Source: Escherichia coli (GTDB lineage Bacteria; Pseudomonadota; Gammaproteobacteria; Enterobacterales; Enterobacteriaceae). From it: a DNA stretch of 64,000 nt. Where the stretch lies: NCBI RefSeq assembly GCF_003334815.1, contig NZ_QOWO01000018.1. One strand, 5' to 3'. The notes below the pieces were generated by a model that saw nothing but the letters and a program-made list of their open reading frames with translations, made no database searches and was not told the DNA's origin. Of the stretch, positions 3,123-40,548 are shown one piece after another. Made by a program: the position numbers and the translations under genes. The stretch's first letter is position 1; each line of letters begins with the position of its first letter.

Positions 3123-3746
3123 ATGTCAGGTCTGCCACAGGGCAGACCAACGTTTGGCGCTGCGCAAAACGTGAGCGCGGTGGTGGCGTATGACTTATCT
3201 GCCCACATGCTGGATGTCGTGGCACAAGCTGCCGAAGCCCGGCAACTGAAAAATATCACCACCCGCCAGGGATATGCCGAAAGTCTGCCATTTGCCGATA
3301 ACGCATTTGATATTGTTATCAGCCGTTATTCTGCCCATCACTGGCATGATGTTGGTGCAGCACTGCGAGAAGTGAATAGGATATTGAAACCTGGCGGTAG
3401 GCTGATTGTGATGGACGTAATGTCTCCGGGTCACCCAGTGCGCGACATCTGGTTACAGACGGTAGAAGCATTACGCGATACCTCTCACGTACGAAACTAC
3501 GCCAGCGGTGAGTGGTTGACGTTAATCAATGAAGCCAATCTGATAGTTGATAATTTAATTACAGATAAGTTACCGCTGGAATTTTCTTCATGGGTCGCGA
3601 GAATGCGTACGCCAGAAGCGTTAGTAGACGCTATTCGCATTTACCAACAGAGCGCATCGACAGAGGTGAGAACGTATTTTGCCTTGCAGAATGATGGCTT
3701 TTTCACCAGTGATATCATCATGGTAGATGCACATAAAGCGGCATAA
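3123..3746 (+). CDS. yafE: SAM-dependent methyltransferase (type 11-like)
   Basis: 207-aa ORF immediately after yafD; methyltransferase-like motifs (DIVISRYSAHHW, LKPGGRLIVMD). Confidence 0.7.
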   Translation: MSGLPQGRPTFGAAQNVSAVVAYDLSAHMLDVVAQAAEARQLKNITTRQGYAESLPFADNAFDIVISRYSAHHWHDVGAALREVNRILKPGGRLIVMDVMSPGHPVRDIWLQTVEALRDTSHVRNYASGEWLTLINEANLIVDNLITDKLPLEFSSWVARMRTPEALVDAIRIYQQSASTEVRTYFALQNDGFFTSDIIMVDAHKAA

Positions 3747-3749
3747 ATA

Positions 3750-3783
3750 AAAAAGGCACCGGGGGAATCGGTGCCTTTTTATT
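3750..3783. terminator. Bidirectional terminator between yafE and mltD
   Basis: aaaaaggcaccg-ggggaat-cggtgccttttt palindrome with flanking A/T runs. Confidence 0.65.
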
Positions 3784-3793
3784 ATCTGGTTTG

Positions 3794-5152
3794 TCAGGAA
3801 TCTGGCATGTTGTTGTTTTTCACAAACAACGTCAGCTTATCGCCTGGTTGCAGATTCGCAGTGTCGCTGTTCCAGCGCATCACATCTTTGATGTTCACGC
3901 CGTGGCGTTTAGCAATGCTTGAAAGCGAATCGCCTTTGCGCACACGATACGTAATGCTATCGCTGTTGTTTGCCAGTCGCTGTGCGCTACTGCCTGCACC
4001 AATCGTCAAACTTTGGCCTGGCTTCAGCTTAGATCCGCGCAGTTTGTTCCACTGCTGCAAATCTTTGGTGCTTACGCCGAGACGTGAAGCGATACTTGAA
4101 AGCGTGTCGCCAGAGCGTACGGTGTAAACACGGCTGTTAAGCGGCGTATTGTCGGCAACCAGCGTCGACTGTACAGCAGCAATTTCGCCTGAAGCCAGAG
4201 ATTCACGCAGTTGATCTGCATGCTTCTTTGGCACCATCACGTACTGCGGGCCACTTGCGCCCAGCGTGGAGCCTTTTACGCCAGCGTTGAATGTCTTCAG
4301 CTTGCTGACGGAAATCCCCGCCATATCTGCTACCTTCGCCATTTCAACCGGGCTGCTCAGGTGCACACGCGCCAGAGCACGGCTTTCATCGGTCGTTGGC
4401 AGACGTACGCCATAACGCTTGCTGTTTTTGAGAATATCACTCAATGCCAGCATTTTAGGCACGTACTGCTTCGTTTCCTGCGGCAACGGTAACGACCAGA
4501 AGTCCGTGGATTTCCCACGCGCTTTGTTCGTTTTAATTGCCTTCATGACCCGACCTTCGCCGCTGTTATAAGCCGCTACGGTCAGAAGCCAGTCGCCGTC
4601 AAACATTTTGTTCAGACGCTGCATCATATTCAGCGCGGCAGTTGTTGAAGCAACAACATCGCGACGCGCGTCATAATTGCGGGTCTGTTTCAAACCATAA
4701 TTGCGCCCCGTGCTCGGAATGATCTGCCAGATGCCTGCGGCATTGGCGCCAGACGTTGCGTGAGGATCAAAAGCGCTCTCCACTATGGGTAGTAGTACCA
4801 GTTCCATAGGCATGTTACGTTTTTTAACTTGCCCTGCTATCCAGTACATATACGGCTCTGCCCGTAAAGTTACATCGTGGAGATAGCTCTTATTGCGTAA
4901 ATATTTCTGTTTCTGTTCGCGAATCCGGTCATTTTCCGGAATTCCCATCTTTAGCTCGTCGCCAATGAAAGCCCACAAGTCACCATCTGGCGCGATAGAC
5001 GTCCCATCGTCCATCCATCGTGCCTGACTTGTAAACTTTGCTGCTTCCCCTTGACCAGCTGCAGAAAGGCTCTGTGCGTGCTGTTGAACGTTGCCGGTAC
5101 TCTGGCAACCCACGAGCAGGACAGAGGCGAGTAATATCGCTTTTGCCTTCAT
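3794..5152 (-). CDS. mltD: Membrane-bound lytic murein transglycosylase D (LysM-containing lipoprotein)
   Basis: 452-aa ORF; lipoprotein signal (LLVGC), transglycosylase SLT core, C-terminal LysM repeats (YTVRSGDTLSSIA, YRVRKGDSLSSIA). Confidence 0.9.
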   Translation of the reverse strand: MKAKAILLASVLLVGCQSTGNVQQHAQSLSAAGQGEAAKFTSQARWMDDGTSIAPDGDLWAFIGDELKMGIPENDRIREQKQKYLRNKSYLHDVTLRAEPYMYWIAGQVKKRNMPMELVLLPIVESAFDPHATSGANAAGIWQIIPSTGRNYGLKQTRNYDARRDVVASTTAALNMMQRLNKMFDGDWLLTVAAYNSGEGRVMKAIKTNKARGKSTDFWSLPLPQETKQYVPKMLALSDILKNSKRYGVRLPTTDESRALARVHLSSPVEMAKVADMAGISVSKLKTFNAGVKGSTLGASGPQYVMVPKKHADQLRESLASGEIAAVQSTLVADNTPLNSRVYTVRSGDTLSSIASRLGVSTKDLQQWNKLRGSKLKPGQSLTIGAGSSAQRLANNSDSITYRVRKGDSLSSIAKRHGVNIKDVMRWNSDTANLQPGDKLTLFVKNNNMPDS

Positions 5153-7199: not shown

Positions 7200-7263
7200 C
7201 TCTGGTAGACTTCCTGTAATTGAATCGAACTGTAAAACGACAAGTCTGACATAAATGACCGCT

Positions 7264-7995
7264 ATGAGCACTGCAATTACACGCCAGATCGTTCTCGATA
7301 CCGAAACCACCGGTATGAACCAGATTGGTGCGCACTATGAAGGCCACAAGATCATTGAGATTGGTGCCGTTGAAGTGGTGAACCGTCGCCTGACGGGCAA
7401 TAACTTCCATGTTTATCTCAAACCCGATCGGCTGGTGGATCCGGAAGCCTTTGGCGTACATGGTATTGCCGATGAATTTTTGCTCGATAAGCCCACGTTT
7501 GCCGAAGTAGCCGATGAGTTCATGGACTATATTCGCGGCGCGGAGTTGGTGATCCATAACGCAGCGTTCGATATCGGCTTTATGGACTACGAGTTTTCGT
7601 TGCTTAAGCGCGATATTCCGAAGACCAATACTTTCTGTAAGGTCACCGATAGCCTTGCGGTGGCGAGGAAAATGTTTCCCGGTAAGCGCAACAGCCTCGA
7701 TGCGTTATGTGCTCGCTACGAAATAGATAACAGTAAACGAACGCTGCACGGGGCATTACTCGATGCCCAGATCCTTGCGGAAGTTTATCTGGCGATGACC
7801 GGTGGTCAAACGTCGATGGCTTTTGCGATGGAAGGAGAGACACAACAGCAACAAGGTGAAGCAACAATTCAGCGCATTGTACGTCAGGCAAGTAAGTTAC
7901 GCGTTGTTTTTGCGACAGATGAAGAGATTGCAGCTCATGAAGCCCGTCTCGATCTGGTGCAGAAGAAAGGCGGAAGTTGCCTCTGGCGAGCATAA
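7264..7995 (+). CDS. dnaQ: DNA polymerase III epsilon subunit (3'-5' proofreading exonuclease)
   Basis: [19 protein letters not shown]... DEDD exonuclease motifs; divergent from rnhA as in enterobacteria. Confidence 0.9.
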
Positions 7996-8127: not shown

Positions 8128-8204
8128 GGAGCGGTAGTTCAGTCGGTTAGAATACCTGCCTGTCACGCAGGGGGTCGCGGGTTCGAGTCCCGTCCGTTCC
8201 GCCA
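8128..8204 (+). tRNA. aspV: tRNA-Asp (GUC anticodon)
   Basis: Identical 77-nt tRNA-Asp sequence ending in CCA; tRNA genes are common island integration sites. Confidence 0.95.
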
Positions 8205-8531: not shown

Positions 8532-9317
8532 ATGAATTCAAAAAAGCTTTGTTGCATATGTGTGTTATTCTCGCTGCTTGCAGGATGTGCCTCTGAATCT
8601 TCTATTGATGAAAAGAAGAAAAAAGCTCAAGTCACACAAAGTAATATTAATAAAAACACTCCCCAGCAACTGACAGACAAAGATTTATTCGGTAATGAAA
8701 CCACTCTGGCCGTATCCGAAGAGGATATTCAAGCTGCGCTTGATGGAGATGAGTTCCGCGTTCCCCTTAATTCTCCTGTAATACTTGTTCAATCCGGCAA
8801 CCGCGCACCGGAAACCATTATGCAGGAGGAGATGCGAAAATATTATACTGTTTCCACATTCTCTGGTATCCCGGACAGGCAAAAGCCTCTGACTTGTAAC
8901 AAAAACAAAGATAAAAATGAGAACGAGGATGTTGCCAGTGCTGAGAATATGAACTGGATGCAGGCACTGCGTTTTGTGGCTGCAAAAGGACATCAGAAAG
9001 CGATTATTGTTTACCAGGATATGTTGCAGACAGGAAAATATGACTCTGCGCTGAAATCAACAGTATGGTCCGACTATAAAAATGACAAACTCACTGACGC
9101 TATCTCCCTGCGCTACCTGGTACGTTTCACGCTGGTGGATGTGGCAACAGGTGAGTGGGCTACCTGGTCGCCGGTGAATTATGAATATAAAGTGCTTCCA
9201 CCATTGCCCGACAAGAATGAAGCCAGTACGACTGATATGACAGAGCAGCAAATCATGCAACTTAAGCAAAAGACCTATAAAGCGATGGTAAAAGATTTGG
9301 TTAACCGCTATCAATAA
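8532..9317 (+). CDS. yafT: Putative lipoprotein
   Basis: 261-aa ORF with lipoprotein signal peptide and lipobox (SLLAGC); AT-rich context downstream of aspV. Confidence 0.75.
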
Positions 9318-9453
9318 TAAATTATATCTGCCGCCAGGAATTTCTGGCGGCAATAATACAAAATTCTTTGCATAAGAAATTTTTCTTGACAAAGACAGTG
9401 CAAGAAAGGACATGGAATCCGGAGTTAAAAACTGTTTGTTTTAGAATATTTAA

Positions 9454-9933
9454 TTATTTAACTGCTGAATCTTCCTTGCGAGAAATATATCCATTATTAC
9501 ATTTCATGCCATTTTTAATATAGATTGCTCCTGGGAAAATTCCCGTATTATTACCGCAGGGGTGATAATTAGTATTGACATATCCTGTGACAAAAGGAGC
9601 TATTAAAGGTGCTATTACGATAGCTATTAGTAAAAATATAAGAGTTAGCTGTATTGTTATGTCTGTGGCGAAATTGACTACCTTCGTTTTTTTGATTAAG
9701 AATGATTTTATTATCGTAAGTAAAATTACATGAATATTTAAAAAGGAAAACGACATGAAACCGAAGCACAGAATCAACATTCTCCAATCATAAAATATTT
9801 CCGTGGAGCATTTTATTATTGAATATAGAGGTTTAACTCCGGTAAAAAACAAAGAAGCATTGAATGCAGGGAAAAATAATATGGCCATAAAAAACATCGA
9901 AAGAAACTCTTTTAATTTAACATGTAAACGCAT
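9454..9933 (-). CDS. ykfM: Small multi-pass membrane protein (candidate immunity protein)
   Basis: 159-aa very hydrophobic low-GC ORF; RBS GAGGA upstream; immediately downstream of the yafU-like gene. Confidence 0.65.
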   Translation of the reverse strand: MRLHVKLKEFLSMFFMAILFFPAFNASLFFTGVKPLYSIIKCSTEIFYDWRMLILCFGFMSFSFLNIHVILLTIIKSFLIKKTKVVNFATDITIQLTLIFLLIAIVIAPLIAPFVTGYVNTNYHPCGNNTGIFPGAIYIKNGMKCNNGYISRKEDSAVK

Positions 9934-9942
9934 GGTTAATCC

Positions 9943-10857
9943 TCATATCACGGGTGGAGTGTTAAGAACATACATAAATGGAGTCATGTTTTCCCTTTTC
10001 CATTTATCAAGTTCCTGTTGCCGTTTTAGTCCATCTCTAATTGCATATTTTAATTTTTCTGATAAATGGCATTGAGCATCGATTTCATTTAAAACAACTG
10101 TACACACTATCCCTGTCAGTAAAATTGCTCCTCCGACAAGAATTACTGGAAAGCCAAAGCTAACACAGGCAAAAGAAGCCAGACTTCCAATAGCGGTTGC
10201 AACACCACCGGCTATAACTGCTTTGGCCACATCCATTGAAAAATCGCCAAGAAAATTAACCAGATCTCGCTCTGAACTCATAATAAATTCTATGGTTCTC
10301 CAGGCTACTGAAAACCAGATACAGAACTTAACTCCTTTTATTGATTCAGATAAAGCTCCTCGCCAGCCAATAGCGAGTTCCAGAACTTGAGGCGCTCGTG
10401 AAGAGAAAATATATTTACCGAGCTTTTCTAAAAGCCAGGGGCTGGATGTTGTGATTTTTATATATTTCTCTCCAAGTATTTCAAAGTAACTTGCTTTTGT
10501 ATACTTTAAGGCATTAAGGTTAAATATAATTTTCCCATTGTCATCAAACTCAGTCATTAATTTACCCGCGTTAACTAACCAGGCGAGTGTATCTTTTATA
10601 CCTGAAGGATGTGTAGTGATAAAATGAATGTAATCAAATGATGTTATTGGGCTGAGTATTTTTTTTGCAACATCAAGTGTCAAGGGAATAACATGATGAG
10701 TGTTCTGATGCCTTAACTCATCAATGAGTGGGACGTCGTTAAGATAAGGGTGCTGAGGTACTAGCTGGTTTATCGGCTGAGCCCCCCGAAGAATGTCACC
10801 CACATAATCAGCCCACTGTGCATTCTGTGTGTTGTTGTTATTCCTTAAACCAGCCAT
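9943..10857 (-). CDS. yafU-like membrane protein with C-terminal transmembrane region (candidate Hcp-associated effector)
   Basis: ORF 9943..10872; ATG at 10857 preceded by GGAGAG RBS; C-terminal hydrophobic stretch VAKAVIAGGVATAIGSLASFACVSFGFPVILVGGAILLTGIVCTVVL; sits 43 bp downstream of hcp. Confidence 0.55.
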   Translation of the reverse strand: MAGLRNNNNTQNAQWADYVGDILRGAQPINQLVPQHPYLNDVPLIDELRHQNTHHVIPLTLDVAKKILSPITSFDYIHFITTHPSGIKDTLAWLVNAGKLMTEFDDNGKIIFNLNALKYTKASYFEILGEKYIKITTSSPWLLEKLGKYIFSSRAPQVLELAIGWRGALSESIKGVKFCIWFSVAWRTIEFIMSSERDLVNFLGDFSMDVAKAVIAGGVATAIGSLASFACVSFGFPVILVGGAILLTGIVCTVVLNEIDAQCHLSEKLKYAIRDGLKRQQELDKWKRENMTPFMYVLNTPPVI

Positions 10858-10900
10858 TTTATCTCTCCGCAATAGTAATTTATTATGTTATTACAGTAAG

Positions 10901-11383
10901 TTACTGTACACGATCCTGCCATTTACTCATTGCATTCGTACCGGCTAACGTATGCTCCCAGGAAATATCTTCATAAATAAAGGCAATTCTCTCCTGTGGT
11001 TCCAGTTCTTTTTCCAGGACAGCATGCGGTGTGACAAAATCAATACTTGATATTCGGGCTTTTGACAGATTTATTTTATAATAAGGCTGGTAAATACCCG
11101 CTTTACTGGTTCGGTAGAGTATAAATTCACATATTGCCATTTTTTCATTGTCACTAAGTGCTTTTGCCAGCAATGGTGAGGATTTATCAACCGGTTTGGT
11201 GATAATTAATTCATGATGATTGACATTTTGACTTCTTGAGATGGAATGCATTAACGCATAAACCATGATCTGATCTTTATGTTCTGGCTGCGCTTTGTTT
11301 CCGACAGAATCAAGCGTTGAGCAACCTGCTGAAATTAGCCCTTGTGTCTCTCCACTCAAAGATAAATAACTTATATTTGCCAT
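10901..11383 (-). CDS. hcp: Type VI secretion system tube protein Hcp
   Basis: 160-aa ORF with Hcp-family features (KPVDKSSPLL, C-terminal ...IYEDISWEH...); strong AGGAG RBS. Confidence 0.8.
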   Translation of the reverse strand: MANISYLSLSGETQGLISAGCSTLDSVGNKAQPEHKDQIMVYALMHSISRSQNVNHHELIITKPVDKSSPLLAKALSDNEKMAICEFILYRTSKAGIYQPYYKINLSKARISSIDFVTPHAVLEKELEPQERIAFIYEDISWEHTLAGTNAMSKWQDRVQ

Positions 11384-11406
11384 GATAATCTCCTTTAATT
11401 AAATAA

Positions 11407-12009
11407 TTATTTTTCGGCCGTGGTACCGGTTGCCGCCTCTGGCATGACGTTATTCTTCAGCAGCAGCCAGCGGCTTAACACGCCTTCGAGTCGCTCATTA
11501 ATTTGTTTTTCCAGCGCATCTGTATTCTGCTTCTGCGCACGGGCATCATGGTACTGCGTCAACAGAGACTCAACGGGTGTTTCCTGCCCCAGTCCCCGCT
11601 CCGCCTGCCAGATGACATTTTTGATATAGGAAAGGGTTAGTCCCTCTTTCTCGCGCTGCATCACTAGATCTGCAAAAGCATGTAAGTCCTGGCGGGTCTG
11701 CAACCAGCCACGCAACTGCGGGCTACTCTGTGCGCGGGTTTTGAGTGCCTCATTCCATTGTGTCGAGGCCTGTTGCTGTTGCAGGCTTTCCGGCCAGCGA
11801 CTGTCGGCAACACGCATCATCTGCATCCCGGTTTCCAGCGGCTGTACCGGGGAGGTATCAAGAAGTTGTTGCAGCCTGCGCTCATAGTTTTCGAGTTCAG
11901 GTGAGGCCATCCACACCGTTGCTGCGCCCTGAGCGGTGTCGTTAACCTGTAACAGTTGCTGCTGCACCGGATAGACCTGCCACCACCACAATGCTGAGGC
12001 GACAGCCAC
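11407..12009 (-). pseudogene. T6SS-associated membrane-anchored protein, probable fragment (family unassigned)
   Basis: In-frame translation opens right after the tssB stop with a hydrophobic helix (GFIAGIACSVAVASALWWW) but no ATG; only a GTG at 12009; Gln-rich soluble domain; no tssC follows tssB. Confidence 0.4.
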
Positions 12010-12071
12010 TGAACAGGCGATCCCTGCGATAAACCCTCTTACCGTAACCCTGTTTAATGAAATAGTGGTGG

Positions 12072-12572
12072 TTATTTATTGCTCACCTGGCCGATTTCTT
12101 TGAGCAACTGCTCGCGGGACTCTTCATTTTCCAGCAATGCCTGGAGCTGGGTACGGAATGCCGGAAGGTTACCCATCGGCCCCTTCAGTGCAGTCAGTGC
12201 TTCACGCAGTTCCAGCAATTTATTCACTTCCGGAACCTGCCGGGCCACGCTATCTGGTGAAAAATCATCCAGTGACTTGATATTCAGCGCCACATTCAGC
12301 TCATCGTCCGTTGTGCTTCCCTTCAGCGTGGCGGGGACGGTAAAATTGAGGCCAATGGCTGCTTCAGCCATCACTGCACCGAAATTGTGCTTGTTAACGG
12401 AAACTGCCTGACGTTCATCCAGTGAGGATGTTTCCTGCGTATTTCCGGTATCGCCGACAACGAGCATGTTAAGCGGAAGTTCCACTTCAGCCGTCTGGCC
12501 ATCTGTTTTTGGGACATACGATATATTAATACGTTCGCGAGGCGCGACGCTGCCTTCAAATTTTTTGCTCAT
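12072..12572 (-). CDS. tssB: Type VI secretion system contractile sheath small subunit TssB (VipA family), orphan
   Basis: 166-aa ORF with TssB-like N-terminus (MSKKFEGSVAPRERINISYVP...ELPLNMLVVGD); not followed by a tssC gene. Confidence 0.75.
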   Translation of the reverse strand: MSKKFEGSVAPRERINISYVPKTDGQTAEVELPLNMLVVGDTGNTQETSSLDERQAVSVNKHNFGAVMAEAAIGLNFTVPATLKGSTTDDELNVALNIKSLDDFSPDSVARQVPEVNKLLELREALTALKGPMGNLPAFRTQLQALLENEESREQLLKEIGQVSNK

Positions 12573-13266
12573 AAAAGTGATCCGTCATGTTATCTCGTAC
12601 AGGCCATGAACACGGCATATTCGTACCGTAAAAAATATCGGAAATGCCGCCTTGATGGCGGTGAAAATAAAATCACCACTCCTTCATCACCCCGCATTTT
12701 ACGCTTCAAAATAAATAAGAAAAGGACTTTTTATCGATCGTAAAGAGGGGTATTCTGCAAGCGTTAAATAGATTGTATGAACCTGTGCAATTCGCGTCAG
12801 GTGTATTATGGCAATAATTTAAATATAGAATTTTTATGTATCTTATTGAATTATATAATAATTTTATTAAACATAAGCTAATCTAATGATTGCTTGTTTA
12901 TATATTTGTTTTGTGATTGATTAAGTGGGTATTTTTAAGGAATATCTCAAAAATTATCAAAATGATAATTCAGAAAGGATAAATACAATATTTATTCATG
13001 ATTCAGCTTTGGCCATTTTATGGAGGCAATACGGACTTTGAACAGTTGGGTATGGTTATCCAGATATATATTATTAAGTTATTGCTGAATAAGAGATTTA
13101 ATGATTTTAAAAATAGTTTTTACGACAACCGTAAATTCTAGCTCGGTTTGTATGTAAAAAATACTGAAAATGATGCGGTTCCGTGAAGTGAGCTGCATCT
13201 GCCTGTCTGGGATTAACGGCAGGTCATTGTAAGTAGTAATTAACCACGTTAACAAGGAGTTTACAA
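12573..13266. promoter_or_regulatory. AT-rich divergent intergenic region between tssB and the Hcp-Rhs gene
   Basis: About 700 bp of low-GC non-coding sequence flanked by divergently oriented genes; typical of xenogeneic promoter regions. Confidence 0.4.
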
Positions 13267-14610
13267 ATGCCAACACCGTGTTATATCTCCATCACTGGTC
13301 AGACCCAGGGAAATATTACTGCAGGTGCATTTACCGCTGATTCTGTCGGCAACATCTATGTGCAGGGGCACGAAGACGAGATGCTGGTGCAGGAATTCCT
13401 GCATAACGTTACTGTCCCGACCGATCCTCAGTCCGGTCAGCCTGCGGGTCAGCGTGCTCACAAGCCTTTCATTTTTACCGTGGCGCTGAACAAAGCGGTT
13501 CCGCTGATGTACAACGCACTGGCCTCCGGCGAAATGCTGCCAACCACTGAACTTCACTGGTGGCGTACCTCTGTGGAAGGCAAACAGGAGCATTATTTCA
13601 CTACCCGCCTGACTGATTCGACGATTGTCGATATGAAACTGCATATGCCGCATTGCCAGGACCCGGCGAAACGCGAGTTTACGGACTGCTCGGGGTACAC
13701 GACGCGGTATGAGTACGACTGGTACGGTCAACAAATCGCCGTTCACCGGGAGGAAGGCATCAGCACTTACAGCAGTTATAACCCGCGTGGGCAACTGGTC
13801 AGTCAGAAGGATGCGCAGGGGCGGGAGACCCGTTATGAGTACAGTACCGCAGGCGACCTCACCGCTATCATTGCCCCGGACGGTAGCCGCAGTGAGACAC
13901 AGTATGATGCGTGGGGTAAAGCCATCAGCACCACGCAGGGCGGTCTGACGCGCAGCATGGGGTATGACGCTGCCGGGCGCATCACCGTGCTGACCAACGA
14001 GAACGGCAGCCAGTCCACGTTCCGGTATGACCCGGTGGACAGGCTGACTGAACAGCGCGGCTTTGACGGGCGGACGCAACGTTACCATTATGACCTGACC
14101 GGAAAACTCACGCAGAGTGAAGACGAGGGGCTTATCACCCTCTGGCATTACGATGCGTCAGACCGTATCACCCGGCGCACGGTGAACGGTGAACCGGCGG
14201 AGCAGTGGCAGTATGACGACCACGGCTGGCTGACAGAAATCAGCCACCTGAGTGAAGGCCACCGTGTGGCGGTCCACTACGGCTATGACGATAAAGGCCG
14301 CCTGACGGGCGAACGGCAGACGGTGGAGAACCCGGAGACGGGGGAGATGCTGTGGGAGCATGAGACGGGGCATGCGTACAGCGAACAGGGGCTGGCGACC
14401 CGTCAGGAGCCGGACGGTCTGCCGCCGGTGGAGTGGCTGACGTATGGCAGCGGTTATCTTGCGGGGATGAAGCTGGGCGGAACACCGCTGGTCGAGTACA
14501 CGCGGGACAGGCTGCACCGTGAGACGGCCCGCAGCTTCGGCGGGGAGGCATATGAACTTGCCACCGCCTGGAATACCAGCGGCCAGCTCCGGAGCGATTC
14601 ATGTCATTAG
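13267..14610 (+). CDS. Hcp-Rhs fusion, N-terminal fragment (Hcp domain plus YD repeats), truncated
   Basis: N-terminal about 140 aa Hcp-like ([20 protein letters not shown]...), then YD/Rhs repeats ([54 protein letters not shown]); ORF ends abruptly at the junction with the H-repeat fragment; AAGGAG RBS. Confidence 0.75.
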
Positions 14611-14629
14611 TGCGTTCTCAACAATGCAC

Positions 14630-15358
14630 AGTCTGGTCATCGGACAGATCAGGACGGATGAGAAATCCAATGAGATTAGAGCTATCCCTGAACTTCTTAA
14701 CATGCTGGATATTAAAGGAAAAATCATCACAACTGATGCGATGGGTTGCCAGAAAGATATTGCAGAGAAGATACAAAAACAGGGAGGTGATTATTTATTC
14801 GCGGTAAAAGGAAACCAGGGGCGGCTAAATAAAGCCTTTGAGGAAAAATTTCCGCTGAAAGAATTAAATAATCCAGAGCATGACAGTTACGCAATGAGTG
14901 AAAAGAGTCACGGCAGAGAAGAAATCCGTCTTCATATTGTTTGCGATGTCCCTGATGAACTTATTGATTTCACGTTTGAATGGAAAGGGCTGAAGAAATT
15001 ATGCGTGGCAGTCTCCTTTCGGTCCATAATAGCAGAACAAAAGAAAGAGCTAGAAATGACGGTCAGATATTATATCAGTTCTGCTGATTTAACCGCAGAG
15101 AAGTTCGCCACAGCAATCCGAAACCACTGGCACGTGGAGAATAAGCTGCACAGGCGTCTGGACGTGGTAATGAATGAAGACGACTACAAAATAAGAAGAG
15201 GAAACGCAGCAGAATTATTTTCAGGGATACGGCACATTGCTATTAATATTTTGACGAATGAGAAGGTATTCAAGGCAGGGTTAAGACGTAAGATGCGAAA
15301 AGCAGCCATGGACAGAAACTACCTGGCGTCAGTCCTTGCGGGGAGCGGGCTTTCGTAG
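14630..15358 (+). pseudogene. yafF: H-repeat-associated (ISAs1-family) transposase, C-terminal fragment
   Basis: Translation ...[17 protein letters not shown]...FAVKGNQ...[10 protein letters not shown]... matches the C-terminal part of H-rpt/ISAs1 transposases; no N-terminal half. Confidence 0.7.
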
Positions 15359-24337: not shown

Positions 24338-26431
24338 TTACATCAACGCCCCCATAATCTTCAACTCCAGCTCATCCGGCACTTCGTTATACGACAGCAC
24401 ATGCAGCCCCGGCGCAAACAACCTTGCATAACGCGCCAGCAAAGGGCGCAGCTGCGGTGGCACCAGCAGCACCGGGTCTTTCCCCGCCGCTTTCATCTGC
24501 TCTTTCACCTGTGGCATCGTACTCTGGAACTGGTTGAGCATATTCGGATCGACCGGCACGCTGTCGAGCATCACTTTCCCGCCCTGTTGCGCCTGATTCA
24601 CCACGTTGGTCAGCAGATTTTCCAGCTCATTATTCAGCGTATACACCGTCAGCTCCTGCTTGCGAACGAACGGATGGGTAATGCTGCGCCGCAATGCCAG
24701 GCGCACATCGGCCGCCAGCAGAATATGATCTTTCGTCACCGTGCTACTGGCGACCAGCACGGTGGCGATGGTGACGATATCGCGCAGGGAAACGCCTTCG
24801 GTCAGCAGCGTCCGGTACACTTTCAGCAACTGGCTGTAATTGAGCGCCGCGCTCAAATCTTCCGCCAGACGCGGTGCCGTCGACGATAAACGGTTATGCA
24901 ACTGCGTAATATCATCATAGTTAAACAAATCAGGAATATAGCTGCGCACAATCTTATTTACATGGGTAGCGATCACGCTGGCGCTGTCGATCACCTGATA
25001 CCCCATATTCAGCGCCTTCGCTTTCTGCGCCGCCTGGATCCAGGTGACCGGCATCCCGTACGCCGGGTCGTTCCCCTGCACGCCGTCAATCTCGCCGTAG
25101 GTTTCGCTGGAGGGCAGGGCCATCAGTTTATCCGCCGGAATATCCGCTTCATCAGCCTTTATGCCGTTGATGAAAATGGCGTACTGACTGGGCTTAAGGC
25201 GGAAGTTTTCCCGAATGCGGATCTCCGGCAGCAGCACGCCGTTGCCGTCAGAAATCACCTGCCGCACGCCGCGAATCCGCTGGGTGAGCGGGTTACCCTG
25301 TGCTTTGTCCACCAGCGCCACCAGTTTGTAACCGAGGCTTAAACTGATAGGCTCGATCAGCGGAATGGTTTCCCAACTGACCTGCTGCTCGCTGGTTTCG
25401 GTGATGGTGCGGGTCAGCGTTTCGAGGCTTTTCTCTTCCGCCTCCGCCGCCAGCGGCTGTTTGCTCATCCGCCAGCCGGTAAAACCAAGCAGGGCGCTGA
25501 ACAGCAAAAACGGCAGGTGCGGCATTCCCGGTACCACCGCCAGCACGAACATAATCCCGGTGGCGGTGTAGAGCACCGACGGGCTTGCCAGCAGCTGGTT
25601 ACGCACGTCATGGGCGATATCGCCGTTGTCGCTGACGCGGGTGACGATAATCGCCGCCGCGGTGGAGAGCAGCAGGGAAGGGATCTGCGCCACCAGGCCG
25701 TCGCCGATGGTCATCAGCACATACTGCTGGAAGGCAGCATCGGCGCTCAGGTTGTATTTGAAGATCCCGATACAGACGCCGCCGATCAGGTTGATCGCCA
25801 GAATCATCATCCCGGCGATGGCGTCCCCGCGCACAAACTTCGATGCCCCGTCCATCGCGCCGTAGAAATCGGCCTCGCTGGCAACATCTTTACGCCGGGT
25901 TTGCGCCTGCGCCTGGTTGATCAATCCGGCGTTAAGATCGGCGTCAATCGCCATCTGTTTGCCGGGCATCGCGTCTAAGGTAAAGCGGGCAGAAACCTCG
26001 GAAATACGCTCGGCCCCTTTGGTGACGACAATAAAGTTGATGATCATCAGGATGATAAACACCACGAAGCCGACGACAAAGTTGCCGCCGATCACCACCT
26101 GACCAAACGACTCAATCACCTTACCCGCCGCGCCCGCGCCGAGATGCCCGTGCAGCAGCACCACGCGCGTAGAAGCAACGTTAAGCGTCAGGCGCATTAA
26201 GGTGGTGATCAGCAAAATGGTCGGGAACAGGCTGAATTCCAGCGGTCGTTTCGCCGACACCGCCACCAGCAGCACCATCACCGCCAGCACAATGTTGAAG
26301 GTGAACAGAATATCCAGCAGCGCAGGCGGCAGCGGCAAAATAACCATCGCCAGAATACACAGGATCACCAGCGGCACGCCGAGATTGCCGCCGCGCAGCA
26401 GCGCGAGGAACGATTTAGTTGTTTTCGCCAT
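24338..26431 (-). CDS. lfhA: Lateral flagellar export apparatus protein, FlhA homologue
   Basis: 697-aa full-length FlhA-family protein (N-terminal TM domain, FHIPEP region). Confidence 0.85.
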   Translation of the reverse strand: MAKTTKSFLALLRGGNLGVPLVILCILAMVILPLPPALLDILFTFNIVLAVMVLLVAVSAKRPLEFSLFPTILLITTLMRLTLNVASTRVVLLHGHLGAGAAGKVIESFGQVVIGGNFVVGFVVFIILMIINFIVVTKGAERISEVSARFTLDAMPGKQMAIDADLNAGLINQAQAQTRRKDVASEADFYGAMDGASKFVRGDAIAGMMILAINLIGGVCIGIFKYNLSADAAFQQYVLMTIGDGLVAQIPSLLLSTAAAIIVTRVSDNGDIAHDVRNQLLASPSVLYTATGIMFVLAVVPGMPHLPFLLFSALLGFTGWRMSKQPLAAEAEEKSLETLTRTITETSEQQVSWETIPLIEPISLSLGYKLVALVDKAQGNPLTQRIRGVRQVISDGNGVLLPEIRIRENFRLKPSQYAIFINGIKADEADIPADKLMALPSSETYGEIDGVQGNDPAYGMPVTWIQAAQKAKALNMGYQVIDSASVIATHVNKIVRSYIPDLFNYDDITQLHNRLSSTAPRLAEDLSAALNYSQLLKVYRTLLTEGVSLRDIVTIATVLVASSTVTKDHILLAADVRLALRRSITHPFVRKQELTVYTLNNELENLLTNVVNQAQQGGKVMLDSVPVDPNMLNQFQSTMPQVKEQMKAAGKDPVLLVPPQLRPLLARYARLFAPGLHVLSYNEVPDELELKIMGALM

Positions 26432-32300: not shown

Positions 32301-33947
32301 ATGAATGCACAAATAAAGAAGTTAACCCAGGCGTTTCCGGCGTTTCGACTGCGTCTCGTAGATAACAAACGCTGGGCGTTGATGGCGGGAGTGGGGCTTG
32401 CCGTGGCGGCGACGGCGATTATCGTCAGCGTGCTGTGGACCGGTAATCGCGGCTACGTTTCGCTCTACGGACGCCAGGAAAATCTGCCCGTGTCGCAGAT
32501 TGTCACGGTGCTGGACGGCGAAAAGCTCAGCTACCGCATCGACCCGCAGAGCGGGCAGATTCTGGTGCCGGAAGATGAACTGTCGAAAACGCGTATGACC
32601 CTTGCCGCGAAAGGCGTGCAGGCGATATTGCCCAGCGGCTACGAGCTGATGGACAAAGACGAAGTGCTCGGCAGCAGCCAGTTCGTGCAGAACGTGCGCT
32701 ATAAACGCAGCCTCGAAGGGGAGCTGGCGCAGAGCATTATGTCGCTGGACGCGGTGGAGAGCGCGCGGGTGCATCTGGCGCTCAACGAAGAAAGCTCGTT
32801 TGTGGTCAGCGATGAGCCGCAAAACAGCGCCTCGGTGGTGGTGCGTCTGCACTACGGCGCGAAGCTGAATATGGACCAGGTGAACGCCATCGTGCATCTG
32901 GTTTCCGGCAGTATTCCGGGGCTGCAGGCCAGCAAAGTCAGCGTCGTCGATCAGGCGGGAAATCTGCTAACCGACGGCATTGGCGCGGGCGAGGCGGTCT
33001 CTGCCGCTACCCGTAAACGCGATCAGATCCTCAAAGACATTCAGGACAAAACCCGCGCCAGCGTGGCGAACGTGCTGGATTCGCTGGTCGGCAGCGGGAA
33101 TTACCGTGTCAGCGTGATGCCGGATCTCGACCTCAGCACCATCGACGAAACTCAGGAACACTACGGAGACGCGCCGAAAATAAACCGCGAAGAGAGCGTG
33201 CTGGACAGCGACACCAATCAGGTGGCGATGGGTGTGCCCGGCTCTCTCAGCAACCGTCCGCCGGTTGCGGCGAATCAGATGACCAACGGCACGGAAGAAA
33301 ATCGCTCGCCGGAAGCGTTATCCAAACACAGCGAAAGCAAGCGCGATTACTCTTACGACCGCAGCGTCCAGCATATTCAGCATCCCGGCTTTGCGGTGAA
33401 ACGCCTCAACGTGGCGGTGGTGCTCAATCAAAACGCCCCGGCGCTGAAAAACTGGAAGCCGGAACAGACCACGCAGCTTACCGCGTTGCTGAACAATGCC
33501 GCCGGGATCGACGCGCAACGTGGAGATAACCTGACGCTTTCACTGCTTAACTTTGTCCCGCAGGTGGTCCCGGTCGAACCGGTGATCCCGCTGTGGAAAG
33601 ATGACAGCGTGCTGGCCTGGGTGCGGCTGATTGGCTGCGGCCTGCTGGCGCTGTTGTTGCTGTTCTTTGTGGTGCGCCCGGTAATGAAACGCCTGACGGC
33701 GGTGCGTGCGCCGGTTATCACACCAGAACCGGAAGCTGTCAGCGAACCGTGGATCGCTATGCCGGAAGAGGAGCGCAAAAACGTCGATCTGCCGTCGCTG
33801 CCCGGCGATGACAGCCTGCCTTCGCAGAGTTCCGGCCTCGAAGTGAAACTCGAGTTCCTGCAAAAACTGGCCATGAGCGACACCGATCGCGTAGCCGAAG
33901 TTCTCAGACAATGGATCACCAGCAATGAGCGAATTGACAACAAATAA
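32301..33947 (+). CDS. lfiF: Lateral flagellar MS-ring protein, FliF homologue
   Basis: 548-aa ORF with N- and C-terminal TM segments typical of FliF. Confidence 0.85.
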   Translation: MNAQIKKLTQAFPAFRLRLVDNKRWALMAGVGLAVAATAIIVSVLWTGNRGYVSLYGRQENLPVSQIVTVLDGEKLSYRIDPQSGQILVPEDELSKTRMTLAAKGVQAILPSGYELMDKDEVLGSSQFVQNVRYKRSLEGELAQSIMSLDAVESARVHLALNEESSFVVSDEPQNSASVVVRLHYGAKLNMDQVNAIVHLVSGSIPGLQASKVSVVDQAGNLLTDGIGAGEAVSAATRKRDQILKDIQDKTRASVANVLDSLVGSGNYRVSVMPDLDLSTIDETQEHYGDAPKINREESVLDSDTNQVAMGVPGSLSNRPPVAANQMTNGTEENRSPEALSKHSESKRDYSYDRSVQHIQHPGFAVKRLNVAVVLNQNAPALKNWKPEQTTQLTALLNNAAGIDAQRGDNLTLSLLNFVPQVVPVEPVIPLWKDDSVLAWVRLIGCGLLALLLLFFVVRPVMKRLTAVRAPVITPEPEAVSEPWIAMPEEERKNVDLPSLPGDDSLPSQSSGLEVKLEFLQKLAMSDTDRVAEVLRQWITSNERIDNK

Positions 33948-34935
33948 GAGCAACAGCTACCTGGAACAGGCGGCGATCCTGCTGCTGTGTCTGGGCGAAG
34001 AGGCGGCGGCGACGGTGATGCAAAAACTCAGCCGCGAAGAAGTAGTGCGCCTGAGCGAAAACATGGCGCGGCTTTCCGGCGTCAAAACCAGCATGGCGCG
34101 CAAAGTGATCAATAACTTCTTTGATGAGTTCCGCGAACAGAGCGGGATCAACGGCGCATCGCGATCCATGTTGCAGGGTATTCTCAACAAAGCCCTCGGC
34201 ACCGAGATCGCCAGCAGCGTGATCAACGGCATCTACGGCGATGAGATCCGCTCGCGGATGGCGCGCCTGCAATGGGTGGAACCACGCCAGCTGGCGATGC
34301 TGATCTCCGAAGAGCATTTGCAATTACAGGCGGTGTTCCTCGCGTTTCTGACGCCGGAAATCTCGGCGGCGGTGCTCTCGTATCTCAATGAATCGGTGCA
34401 AAACGAAATTCTCTATCGGGTGGCGAAACTCAACGACGTTAACCGCGACGTGGTGGATGAACTGGACAGGCTGATCGAACGCGGCCTGTCGGTGCTCTCT
34501 GAACATGGCTCGAAGGTGAAAGGCATCAAACAGGCGGCGGATATCGTCAACCGCTTCCAGGGTAACCAGCAGGTGATCCTCGACCAGATGCGCGAGCGCG
34601 ACGAAGAGGTGCTGGAGCAGCTCCAGGATGAGATGTACGACTTCTTTATCCTCAGCCGCCAGAACGAAGAGGTACGTCGACGTCTGCTCGACGAAGTGCC
34701 GATGGAAGACTGGGCGGTGGCGCTGAAAGGCACCGAAGCCCTGTTGCGGCGCTCGATTTACGCGGTAATGCCAAAACGTCAGGTGCAACAACTGGAAGCG
34801 ATCACCGCGCGCCTGGGGCCGGTGCCGGTCAGCCGTATCGAACAGATCCGCCGCGAAATCATGGGCATCGCCCGTGAACTGGAAGAGGCGGGCGAAATTC
34901 AGCTACAGCTCTTTGCGGAACAGACGGCGGAGTAA
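33925..34935 (+). CDS. lfiG: Lateral flagellar motor switch protein, FliG homologue
   Basis: 336-aa ORF, FliG-like, following FliF. Confidence 0.85.
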   Translation: MSELTTNKSNSYLEQAAILLLCLGEEAAATVMQKLSREEVVRLSENMARLSGVKTSMARKVINNFFDEFREQSGINGASRSMLQGILNKALGTEIASSVINGIYGDEIRSRMARLQWVEPRQLAMLISEEHLQLQAVFLAFLTPEISAAVLSYLNESVQNEILYRVAKLNDVNRDVVDELDRLIERGLSVLSEHGSKVKGIKQAADIVNRFQGNQQVILDQMRERDEEVLEQLQDEMYDFFILSRQNEEVRRRLLDEVPMEDWAVALKGTEALLRRSIYAVMPKRQVQQLEAITARLGPVPVSRIEQIRREIMGIARELEEAGEIQLQLFAEQTAE

Positions 34936-34938
34936 CCC

Positions 34939-35649
34939 ATGACCATTGAAACACTGCGCGGGCGCTATCGCCTGCACCGCTTCCCGCCGCGCCAGCGTGC
35001 GGTGACCGGAGAACCGCTCACCGCCAGCATTAGCGCCGCCGATTACCAGCGCCAGTTGATGGACGGTTTTCAGGAAGGGCTGCAAAAAGGTTTTGCTCAG
35101 GGAATGACCGAAGGTCAGGAGCAGGGCTTTAGCGAAGGTCATCAGCAAGGTTTTGCCGAGGGGCGACGCCAGGGCTACACCGAAGGCAGTCTCGCCGGGC
35201 AGCAGGAAGGGCGCAAACAGTTTGTTGAGGCGGCGCAGCCGCTGGAAGCCATCACCGGTAAAGTGAACGACTTTCTCGCCCATATCGAACGTAAACAGCG
35301 GGAAGATTTGCTGCAACTGGTGGAAAAGGTGACGCGGCAGGTGATCCGCTGCGAACTGGCGCTGCAACCGACGCAGTTGCTGGCGCTGGTGGAAGAGGCG
35401 CTGGCGGCCTTCCCGGCGATGCCGGAAACCCTGCAAGTGATGCTGAGTACGGAAGAGTTTAACCGCCTGCGCGACGCGGTGCCGGAAAAGGTCAGCGAAT
35501 GGGGGCTGACGCCTTCGCCGGATCTGCCACCGGGCGAATGCCGGGTGATCACCGACAAATCCGAACTGGATATCGGCTGCGAGCATCGCCTTGAACAATG
35601 CATGACCGCGCTGAAAGAAACACTCACGCCGGAGTCGCAGGGTGAGTGA
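34939..35649 (+). CDS. lfiH: Lateral flagellar export protein, FliH homologue
   Basis: 236-aa ORF with repeated GxxxG/EG-rich N-terminal region, between FliG and FliI homologues. Confidence 0.75.
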   Translation: MTIETLRGRYRLHRFPPRQRAVTGEPLTASISAADYQRQLMDGFQEGLQKGFAQGMTEGQEQGFSEGHQQGFAEGRRQGYTEGSLAGQQEGRKQFVEAAQPLEAITGKVNDFLAHIERKQREDLLQLVEKVTRQVIRCELALQPTQLLALVEEALAAFPAMPETLQVMLSTEEFNRLRDAVPEKVSEWGLTPSPDLPPGECRVITDKSELDIGCEHRLEQCMTALKETLTPESQGE

Positions 35650-36979
35650 TTTTTCTGCGTTCGATAACGCCCTGCGCTCGCTGGAGTCGATCCCGCTGGC
35701 CCGCGTCGCCGGGCGGCTGGTGCGCCTTAACGGCATCCTGCTGGAGAGTGTCGGCTGCCCGCTAATGACCGGGCAGCTGTGCCGCATCGAAAGTGCCAAT
35801 CACACGCTGATCGACGCGCAGGCCGTGGGCTTTAATCGCGACATCACCTATTTAATGCCGTTTAAACAGCCGGTCGGCCTGATGGCAGGCGCACGCGTCT
35901 TCCCGGAAGAAAAAGCCCACGACATCCTGATAGGCGAAAGCTGGTTAGGCCGCGTGGTGAATGGCCTCGGCGAACCGCTGGATGGCAAAGGCCGCCTGAA
36001 CGGCAACGACCTTCTGCCGCCGTTGCCGCCCTCGGTTAATCCCTTAACTCGTCGTTCGGTAGACGAACCGCTGGACGTGGGCGTGAAAGCGATCAACGGC
36101 CTGCTGACCATCGGCAAAGGCCAGCGCGTCGGACTAATGGCAGGCAGCGGCGTCGGGAAAAGCGTGCTGCTGGGGATGATCACCCGCCAGACCAAAGCCG
36201 ATATCGTGGTGGTTGGGCTGATTGGGGAACGCGGGCGCGAAGTGAAAGAGTTTATCGACCACTCGCTGGGCGCGGACGGGCTGGCAAAGTCTATCGTCGT
36301 CGTCGCGCCTGCCGATGAATCGCCGCTGATGCGTCTGAAAGCCACCGAACTGTGCCACTCCATCGCCGCCTGGTTTCGCGACCGCGGGCATCACGTCTTA
36401 CTGCTGGTGGATTCCCTGACCCGCTACGCGATGGCGCAGCGGGAAATCGCCCTCTCGCTCGGCGAACCGCCCGCCACCAAAGGTTATCCGCCATCGGCAT
36501 TCGGCATGATCCCCAAACTGGTCGAAAGCGCAGGCAACAGCGAAAGCGCGGGATCGATGACCGCCATCTACACCGTGCTGGCGGAAGGTGACGACCAGCA
36601 AGATCCGATTGTCGACTGCGCGCGCGCGGTGCTGGACGGGCATATCGTATTAACCCGCAAACTGGCGGAAGCGGGGCACTATCCGGCCATTGATATCGGC
36701 CAGTCGATCAGCCGCTGCATGAACCAGGTCACCAGCCTGGAACATCAGCAATCCGCCCGCGCGTTAAAGCAAAACTATGCCGCCTATATGGAGATCAAAC
36801 CTCTGATCCCGCTCGGCGGCTATGTGGCAGGTGCCGACGCCAGCGTCGACAAAGCGGTGAAAATGTTTCCGGCCATTGAGCGATTTTTGCGCCAGGAGAT
36901 GCGCGAACCCGCCTCCCTCGAACTGGTGCAAAGCCGCCTGCAAATCCTCTTTCCTTGTGCCAAAAAGGCAGAACAGTAA
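35642..36979 (+). CDS. lfiI: Lateral flagellum-specific export ATPase, FliI homologue
   Basis: 445-aa ORF with Walker A (GSGVGKSVLLGM) and Walker B (LLLVDSLTRYA). Confidence 0.9.
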   Translation: MSDFSAFDNALRSLESIPLARVAGRLVRLNGILLESVGCPLMTGQLCRIESANHTLIDAQAVGFNRDITYLMPFKQPVGLMAGARVFPEEKAHDILIGESWLGRVVNGLGEPLDGKGRLNGNDLLPPLPPSVNPLTRRSVDEPLDVGVKAINGLLTIGKGQRVGLMAGSGVGKSVLLGMITRQTKADIVVVGLIGERGREVKEFIDHSLGADGLAKSIVVVAPADESPLMRLKATELCHSIAAWFRDRGHHVLLLVDSLTRYAMAQREIALSLGEPPATKGYPPSAFGMIPKLVESAGNSESAGSMTAIYTVLAEGDDQQDPIVDCARAVLDGHIVLTRKLAEAGHYPAIDIGQSISRCMNQVTSLEHQQSARALKQNYAAYMEIKPLIPLGGYVAGADASVDKAVKMFPAIERFLRQEMREPASLELVQSRLQILFPCAKKAEQ

Positions 36980-40376: not shown

Positions 40377-40401
40377 GGTGTTTGGGTGAGTTAATGGGTG
40401 A

Positions 40402-40548
40402 ATGTGATGAATGTGCGCGCTGATGCCCTCACCCCAACCCTCTCCCACAGGGAGAGGGAGAAAATCAGCGCCGATTTTAACACTGTGCTCGATCGGTCCC
40501 CTCGCCCCTTTGGGGAGAGGGTTAGGGTGAGGGGCAAAGCGCGCACAG
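40402..40548. mobile_element. MITE-like element with about 35-bp terminal inverted repeats (family unassigned)
   Basis: Left arm tgtgcgcgctgatgccctcaccccaaccctctccc (40402..40436) and right arm, reverse-complemented, tgtgcgcgctttgcccctcaccctaaccctctccc (40514..40548); internal palindrome ccctctccc/gggagaggg. Confidence 0.55.

Follow-up and report, generated by a model that had tools for sequence, protein, structure and literature searches.

Remnant of the T6SS-2 island at aspV of Escherichia coli with a probable Tme-family effector and YkfM as its predicted immunity protein

The DNA considered here is a stretch of 64,000 nucleotides from the Escherichia coli contig NZ_QOWO01000018.1, hereafter called the window, to which all coordinates refer, and the element in question is a block of type VI secretion system (T6SS) genes located beside the tRNA-Asp gene aspV. 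It was verified that this block is what two simple deletions left of the E. coli T6SS-2 island, and it very probably carries a stranded antibacterial effector of the Tme family, a protein of 304 amino acids (aa), together with YkfM as its cognate immunity protein of the Tmi family. This effector/immunity assignment is not new, since the pair was already catalogued in 2020 within the Tme/Tmi family. In Supplementary Data 5 of Fridman et al. 2020 (PMC7046647), the protein WP_000908066.1 was listed as a Tme (residues 122–277, E 2.6e-36), with the Hcp WP_001284199.1 43 bp upstream and the YkfM WP_001236645.1 9 bp downstream, and the same table holds more than 1000 E. coli entries of exactly this gene. 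These three accessions annotate DNA of the calf isolate 52F4 that is 100% identical to window positions 9300–12700. A preliminary description of the window had proposed a degenerate T6SS remnant at aspV and a resemblance of two of its genes to effector/immunity cassettes. Both proposals held, the former through an intact island between the same flanks in strain FORC_069 and the latter through the published listing, the Tme motif, the domain fusions, the gene pairing and the profile match to DUF1240 that are presented below.

The T6SS-2 island and its two deletions

The window was compared by megablast with 5,426 complete E. coli genomes. In about 2,370 of them, the segment 9300–12046 was found contiguous and running on into a full-length vasL. 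In FORC_069, the island comprises, in order, ykfM, the gene of the 304-aa protein, hcp, vasL (450 aa in its full form), tssM, tssA, vasI, tssH, dotU, tssK, tssJ, tagH, tssG, tssF, tssE, tssC, a small open reading frame (ORF) and tssB, followed by a divergent hcp, and in 52F4 vgrG and rhs are found beyond the divergent hcp. This comparison with intact aspV islands, which the preliminary description had suggested as a check, gave both flanks of the first deletion, which joins vasL at about codon 238 straight to the 3′ flank of tssB, with the breakpoint at 12045/12046. About 18.2 kb were lost in this event, which removed the genes from tssC to tssM together with the 5′ half of vasL. The tssB that had been described as an orphan is full length (TIGR03358) and is not followed by tssC in the window, and the fragment that had been noticed for lacking an ATG start is the 3′ part of vasL, whose identical DNA in 52F4 is annotated in RefSeq as 'VasL domain-containing, missing N-terminus'. 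Since the 12045/12046 junction was present in only one of the 5,426 complete genomes, that of 52F4, the first deletion appears to be recent and lineage-specific. Additionally, the ykfM segment and the 5′ segment of the 304-aa gene of the window are 100% identical to those of other strains.

The second deletion was delimited by blastn against 52F4, the nearest complete genome, which has the first junction and not the second. Relative to this isolate, 4.2 kb are absent at the junction 13678/13679, with loss of the 3′ end of the divergent hcp, of vgrG and of the 5′ half of rhs, and this junction was absent from all the complete E. coli genomes searched. As a result of the same event, the divergent hcp is joined in frame, at about codon 138, to the rhs core, generating a chimeric ORF that runs into an ISEc1 remnant. 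From the T6SS core set, only tssB and two hcp genes, one of them truncated, remain at the locus, from which tssC, tssE, tssF, tssG, tssJ, tssK, tssL (dotU), tssM, tssA, tssH and vgrG are absent. Therefore, the locus cannot fire, because all the apparatus genes except tssB and hcp are gone, vgrG included. No T6SS genes were noticed in the other 50 kb of the window.

The parent island is the one described as T6SS-2 in avian pathogenic (APEC), extraintestinal pathogenic (ExPEC) and enterohaemorrhagic (EHEC) E. coli, composed of an operon from vipA2 to hcp2A and a divergent hcp2B–vgrG2 operon (PMC5874247). The window shares with it the insertion site, the flanks and the gene order, and each retained gene is near-identical in sequence; the difference lies in the ~18.2 kb of core genes and the ~4.2 kb spanning the hcp2B 3′ end, vgrG2 and the rhs 5′ half that the window no longer has. 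The retained hcp was assigned to the hcp2A type and the truncated divergent hcp to the hcp2B type of the APEC nomenclature (PMC5874247), both by position and orientation alone. The two Hcp proteins of the island are only 30% identical to each other.

Regarding the organization of the retained genes, the hcp that had been described as well formed and preceded by a strong ribosome-binding site matched TIGR03344 and has AGGAG 7 nt ahead of its ATG in the raw sequence. Between hcp and the 304-aa gene lie 43 nt, in agreement with the earlier figure, and these include the GGAGAG ribosome-binding site that precedes the ATG start of the latter. On the other hand, the 304-aa gene and ykfM, previously described as 10 bp apart, are separated by 9 nt, counted from the TGA of the former to the ATG of the latter, and a GAGGA sequence overlaps the stop codon. 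The characterization of the whole block as low in GC was confirmed for ykfM, the 304-aa gene and hcp (30–40%) but not for the vasL fragment and tssB, where GC content reaches 49–56%. The intergenic region upstream of tssB (12573–13266) is 100% identical to that of 52F4 and 98.8% identical to that of FORC_069 by blastn. Because this promoter region, tssB, hcp, the 304-aa gene and ykfM are all intact, the remnant genes may still be transcribed, as the retention of the native intergenic region suggests. A consensus promoter scan of the remnant operon found promoter-like sites no commoner than chance, and the T6SS-2 locus at aspV was reported to be repressed by H-NS (PMC5874247). A terminator-like hairpin between the convergent yafT and ykfM genes is the probable end of the operon.

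E. coli K-12 represents a further-reduced form of the same island, in which ykfM is kept along with no more than 118 codons of the effector gene. In MG1655, ykfM and yafV are separated by 682 bp, in agreement with the earlier estimate of about 0.7 kb, and YkfM is the identical protein (WP_001236645.1). Beside ykfM, a 357-nt pseudogene (3490–3846 of the MG1655 locus L007) matches the 3′ end of the 304-aa gene at full identity, corresponding to its last 118 codons, and is cut off by an ISAs1/ISEc1 fragment at 41 nt from yafV. This established the suspicion that yafU is a remnant of the 304-aa gene. The annotated yafU product, which we take to be 112 aa long, would correspond to residues 193–304 if translation started at an internal in-frame methionine. 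A residual interaction between YafU and YkfM in K-12 is a speculation of low probability.

The 304-residue protein, YkfM and the Tme/Tmi family

The 304-aa protein gave no significant match in Pfam, NCBIfam or PADLOC; DUF6722, the sole Pfam match, had an E value of 2.8 and was discarded as noise. Close relatives recovered by a word-indexed search were confined to Escherichia, Salmonella and Rahnella, and an exhaustive profile search gathered 701 representative relatives with a common core at profile positions ~120–283. Among 58 relatives sharing 15–64% identity, K212 and D260 were invariant, D209 was at least 90% conserved and G129, G164 and G175 were nearly invariant. The sole strongly hydrophobic stretch detected by hydropathy, which corresponds to the C-terminal transmembrane stretch previously noted, covers the 49 residues 213–261, exactly between D260 and a DxxK motif formed by D209-V-A-K212, and its length is sufficient for a predicted helical hairpin. 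This arrangement, located in the C-terminal half, reproduces the published Tme motif, 'DxxK, transmembrane helix, D' (PMC7046647). In the AlphaFold2 model of the protein, the region 165–290 is formed by helices with a predicted local distance difference test (pLDDT) score of ~80–94.

Additional evidence for a T6SS toxin came from the N-terminal regions of the relatives. In some of them, the Tme domain is fused to PAAR (P0116 and P0127) or to the N-terminal region of the VPA1263 T6SS effector model (P0147 and P0178), which we take to be a MIX-type domain. Thus, the association with T6SS is given both by the hcp located upstream within the T6SS-2 operon and by the delivery domains that relatives carry. 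Moreover, residues 1–45 of the E. coli protein form a conserved leader that is 78–84% identical in variants whose remainder is only 14–34% identical, a mosaic of the kind usually seen in polymorphic toxins whose delivery leader is conserved.

YkfM, described before as a 159-aa polytopic membrane protein, has three hydrophobic segments by hydropathy. Its relatives at 52–66% identity carry the Pfam domain DUF1240 (PF06836), and when a profile of Escherichia YkfM was aligned by hhalign with the DUF1240 neighbours of distant Tme genes, a match with a probability of 97.3% and an E value of 1.7e-11 was obtained over residues 19–147. The most conserved residues of the family are found in the C-terminal tail (Y123, C126, G131, Y138, K140 and C145), and the AlphaFold2 model, with a pLDDT of ~71, contains three long helices and a small sheet (45–48, 123–126 and 136–140). 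YkfM is accordingly modelled as an inner-membrane protein with three transmembrane helices, whose conserved cysteine-containing tail is predicted to be periplasmic. The location of its gene directly 3′ of a Tme gene, the three predicted transmembrane helices and the profile link to DUF1240 are the features of Tmi proteins, DUF1240 and DUF1240-like proteins having been proposed as this immunity family (PMC7046647).

The pairing of the two genes was found repeatedly. In six of six contexts, a gene for a small DUF1240 or DUF1240-like membrane protein lies directly 3′ of the effector gene, and in four of the six hcp adjoins the pair. These contexts are E. coli, the same island in Salmonella enterica, Rahnella bruchi, a metagenomic contig with the gene order hcp, effector, small gene, and two orphan pairs with no T6SS gene nearby. 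In Rahnella bruchi, an Hcp–Tme–DUF1240 trio is surrounded by housekeeping genes, T6SS core genes being absent up to a distance of 8 kb, and its orphan Hcp is 57% identical to the Hcp retained in the window. In Salmonella enterica (contig DALPDZ010000034.1; 9586–11010 of locus L006), a second Tme gene occurs downstream of the first Tme/DUF1240 pair, split by a frameshift (9586–10095 and 10052–10534) and followed by its own DUF1240 gene (10555–11010). The first ~60 residues of this second Tme share 57% identity with the E. coli protein, beyond which the sequences diverge, so that the tandem looks like an array of effector/immunity modules in decay. The gene order and this co-occurrence make Hcp the putative carrier of the 304-aa effector. 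As a separate observation, the first ~80 residues of a 275-aa protein from the deep search (P0143) match the Tme leader and N-terminal region, and its remainder is a multi-transmembrane sequence with a cysteine-containing tail reminiscent of DUF1240; this protein may be a deletion chimera of effector and immunity genes.

In Vibrio parahaemolyticus, the activity of the family was demonstrated by experiment with two members, Tme1 and Tme2, whereas the E. coli member is known here by its sequence. Both were secreted in a T6SS-dependent manner and were not required for T6SS activity, and both were toxic mainly or only upon periplasmic targeting, causing loss of membrane potential and propidium iodide uptake with no lysis; each was rescued only by its cognate Tmi (PMC7046647). 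Like the E. coli protein, Tme1 and Tme2 have a C-terminal Tme domain with DxxK, a transmembrane segment and a flanking aspartate, a DUF1240-like gene with 3–6 transmembrane segments directly downstream and a T6SS gene upstream. However, the E. coli protein is unrelated to them in its N-terminal half, N-terminal extensions being variable in the family (PMC7046647), and in E. coli the upstream gene is an hcp inside the core cluster.

Other T6SS effectors are known to form pores in or to depolarise membranes, such as VasX of V. cholerae, Tse4 of P. aeruginosa and Ssp6 of Serratia, with the immunity proteins TsiV2, Tsi4 and Sip6, respectively. They act on the inner membrane from the periplasm through small hydrophobic or glycine-rich membrane-inserting segments, their cognate immunity proteins reside in or at the membrane, and Tse4 is a cargo carried by Hcp. 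Nevertheless, the motifs and immunity folds of these families differ from those of Tme/Tmi, and no sequence or fold relationship between them and the 304-aa protein was detectable in the searches that were run. A likeness also exists to the pore-forming colicins A, E1, Ia and N, in which a long hydrophobic helical hairpin of about 40–50 residues lies within a helical bundle and immunity is provided by an inner-membrane protein with 3–4 transmembrane segments: the long hairpin and the multi-transmembrane immunity protein resemble the 304-aa protein and YkfM. VasX was used as a control in the study that defined the Tme family (PMC7046647), and a large survey of T6SS in E. coli (PMC12282107) made no mention of Tme, aspV or remnants.

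Proposed action of the pair and competing explanations

Because of its membership in the Tme family, the E. coli protein is expected to act by the mechanism described in Vibrio, and the toxicity of this protein, its carriage by Hcp and the immunity role of YkfM are proposed here. In strains with the whole island, the Hcp whose gene immediately precedes that of the 304-aa effector would probably serve to load it, and firing by T6SS-2 would carry the effector into the periplasm of adjacent bacterial cells. There, the hydrophobic hairpin of the C-terminal domain would insert into the inner membrane of the prey from the periplasmic side, the membrane potential would collapse and the membrane would turn leaky. 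In sister cells, YkfM would block the toxin, probably through a conserved periplasmic loop and its cysteine-containing tail. In the strain analysed here, the deletion of the firing apparatus of the locus would have left the toxin gene stranded, and the only function for which no apparatus would be needed is the protection that YkfM may confer against T6SS-2-positive E. coli.

Some points weigh against this explanation. YkfM itself scored below every Pfam threshold and had no significant match in NCBIfam or PADLOC. The N-terminal half of the 304-aa protein was modelled with low confidence. The check by remote homology and structure that had been advised for the two proteins gave a profile match between YkfM and DUF1240, but structure searches retrieved nothing of specifically related fold, such as the pore domain of a colicin. 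No direct evidence ties the 34-kDa effector to Hcp rather than to VgrG or PAAR, and a protein of 34 kDa is on the large side for cargo in the lumen of the Hcp ring. In the literature searched, no experiment on the E. coli 304-aa protein or on YkfM as an immunity protein was found. Additionally, the only published phenotype of ykfM in K-12 is unrelated to T6SS: exposure to nalidixic acid, mitomycin C or peroxide was more lethal to ykfM::Tn5 mutants (PMC2824699), a stress phenotype without evident link to immunity.

A first alternative is that the cassette is still armed, hcp, the Tme gene and ykfM constituting a portable cartridge that is fired by a second T6SS (T6SS-1 or T6SS-3) encoded elsewhere in the genome. 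In agreement with this, the three ORFs, tssB and the native promoter region are all intact, the Rahnella bruchi trio, which has the same Hcp type, lies away from T6SS core genes, pairs in two more contexts have no adjacent T6SS gene, and many E. coli harbor more than one T6SS (PMC12282107). However, the deletion looks very recent, given its single occurrence among the complete genomes and the complete identity of the retained DNA to that of 52F4, and, because it is so recent, the intact ORFs say nothing on selection. Furthermore, Hcp proteins diverge between the T6SS classes of E. coli, even the two of this island differing widely, and they were reported to be tied to their own systems (PMC5874247). 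Firing of this cassette by another T6SS is consequently considered improbable, and it is just as doubtful that the trio would be a self-contained transferable unit, composed of a tube subunit, a cargo with a 45-residue loading leader and an immunity protein, usable by a heterologous T6SS. If it were so, ykfM of K-12 would be a working orphan immunity gene in a strain with no T6SS, and the 118-codon yafU remnant might be a residual membrane toxin kept in check by YkfM, a reading that would tie in the unexplained stress hyperlethality of the ykfM::Tn5 mutants.

The latter phenotype also underlies a second alternative, in which the pair would have no need of T6SS and would operate within the cell that makes it, as a toxin–antitoxin-like module for addiction or membrane stress. 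Such a module would explain both the maintenance of ykfM beside the yafU remnant in K-12, which keeps DxxK, the hydrophobic hairpin and D260, and the stress deaths of the ykfM::Tn5 mutants (PMC2824699). The distribution of the two genes was also considered, ykfM being present in 2,998 of the 5,426 complete genomes and the 5′ part of the effector gene in 2,575. The excess of ykfM would fit an addiction module, but laboratory derivatives of K-12 make up many of the genomes that have ykfM alone; since such strains inflate the count, the excess was rejected as a weak sign of selection for orphan immunity. In addition, Tme1 was harmless when expressed in the cytoplasm, the toxicity of Tme proteins requiring periplasmic delivery, and the family table records no signal peptide for the 304-aa protein (PMC7046647). 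The retention of an orphan immunity gene is the ordinary expectation for a T6SS immunity protein, and an intracellular role for the pair is regarded as quite unlikely. Least probable of all, and hardly to be expected, is that the 304-aa protein would belong to T6SS-2 itself, as an accessory or structural component anchored in the membrane, where YkfM would be its partner, since, despite its membrane anchor, the placement of its gene at the distal end of the core operon, next to vasL and hcp in all the intact E. coli islands seen, and the lack of an enzymatic domain in Pfam, NCBIfam and PADLOC, the pair is also found away from any T6SS cluster, the C-terminal domain of the family is fused in a toxin-like manner to PAAR and presumably MIX-type delivery domains, variants form a mosaic of conserved leader and divergent body, tandem duplicated and decayed copies each have their own DUF1240 gene, and two family members are secreted toxins dispensable for T6SS activity (PMC7046647).

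Surroundings of the island and significance of the pair

The features of the locus are given in Table 1. The placement of aspV relative to dnaQ and yafT matches in 52F4, FORC_069 and K-12. A second tRNA-Asp gene (GTC), with the same anticodon, is found 8 kb away at 125–201, in the position taken in FORC_069 by the tRNA-Asp gene that follows a 5S rRNA gene upstream of dkgB.

Table 1. Coordinates of the T6SS-2 remnant and its flanking features in the window
Feature	Position	Strand	Basis
dnaQ	7255–7995		
tRNA-Asp (aspV), site beside the T6SS-2 island	8128–8204	+	ARAGORN
yafT	8532–9317		
Terminator-like GC-rich hairpin (10 bp, 7 GC) between convergent yafT and ykfM	9328–9353	-	Consensus scan, pattern match only
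ykfM, predicted Tmi (DUF1240-like) immunity protein, 159 aa	9454–9933	-	Identical DNA annotated WP_001236645.1 in 52F4
Gene of the 304-aa Tme-family T6SS effector (probable), RefSeq 'hypothetical protein' WP_000908066.1	9943–10857	-	
hcp, intact tube protein, 160 aa, putative effector carrier	10901–11383	-	TIGR03344, E 2e-60
vasL 3′ fragment, C-terminal ~212 codons, pseudogene left by deletion	11407–12045	-	Comparison with 52F4 and FORC_069
Junction of the ~18.2-kb deletion, 2-bp TA microhomology	12045–12046		Three-way alignment with both intact sides
tssB, intact small sheath subunit, 166 aa, head of the remnant operon	12072–12572	-	TIGR03358, E 1.7e-50, profile positions 4–158/160
AT-rich (26–30% GC) divergent intergenic region, native promoters of the two T6SS-2 operons	12573–13266		Composition
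Chimeric ORF, divergent hcp 5′ part and rhs core	13267–14610	+	NCBIfam Hcp 1–140 and RHS_core profile 549–860
ISEc1 (ISAs1-family, H-repeat) transposase remnant; truncates rhs, abuts yafV	14591–15358	+	Colinear 52F4 annotation

Further downstream, the window harbors an apparently complete second flagellar gene cluster (Flag-2, lateral flagella) at ~24300–61300, with flhA (24338–26431, minus strand), fliF (32301–33947), fliG (33925–34935), fliI (35642–36979), flgE (44857–46059), flgK (50247–51623) and fliD (56153–57469). In 52F4, the 24 kb of this cluster that correspond to window 32702–56707 are missing by a fliF′–′fliD deletion, and K-12 keeps only end fragments of the cluster. An 838-aa ORF of the Flag-2 region (37932–40448, minus strand) had no NCBIfam match at E ≤ 1e-10.

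With respect to its significance, the identification of the stranded Tme effector and its YkfM partner leaves the understanding of how such systems work unchanged. Its value lies partly in annotation, since RefSeq names the effector 'hypothetical protein' and the immunity gene 'protein YkfM' despite the family listing of 2020. Considering that the toxin gene is present in about 2,600 and ykfM in about 3,000 of the 5,426 genomes, Tme/YkfM probably ranks among the most widespread pairs of antibacterial weapon and shield in E. coli. Moreover, K-12, the usual 'prey' of T6SS assays, carries the gene of the predicted shield, which could bias competition experiments against T6SS-2-positive E. coli.

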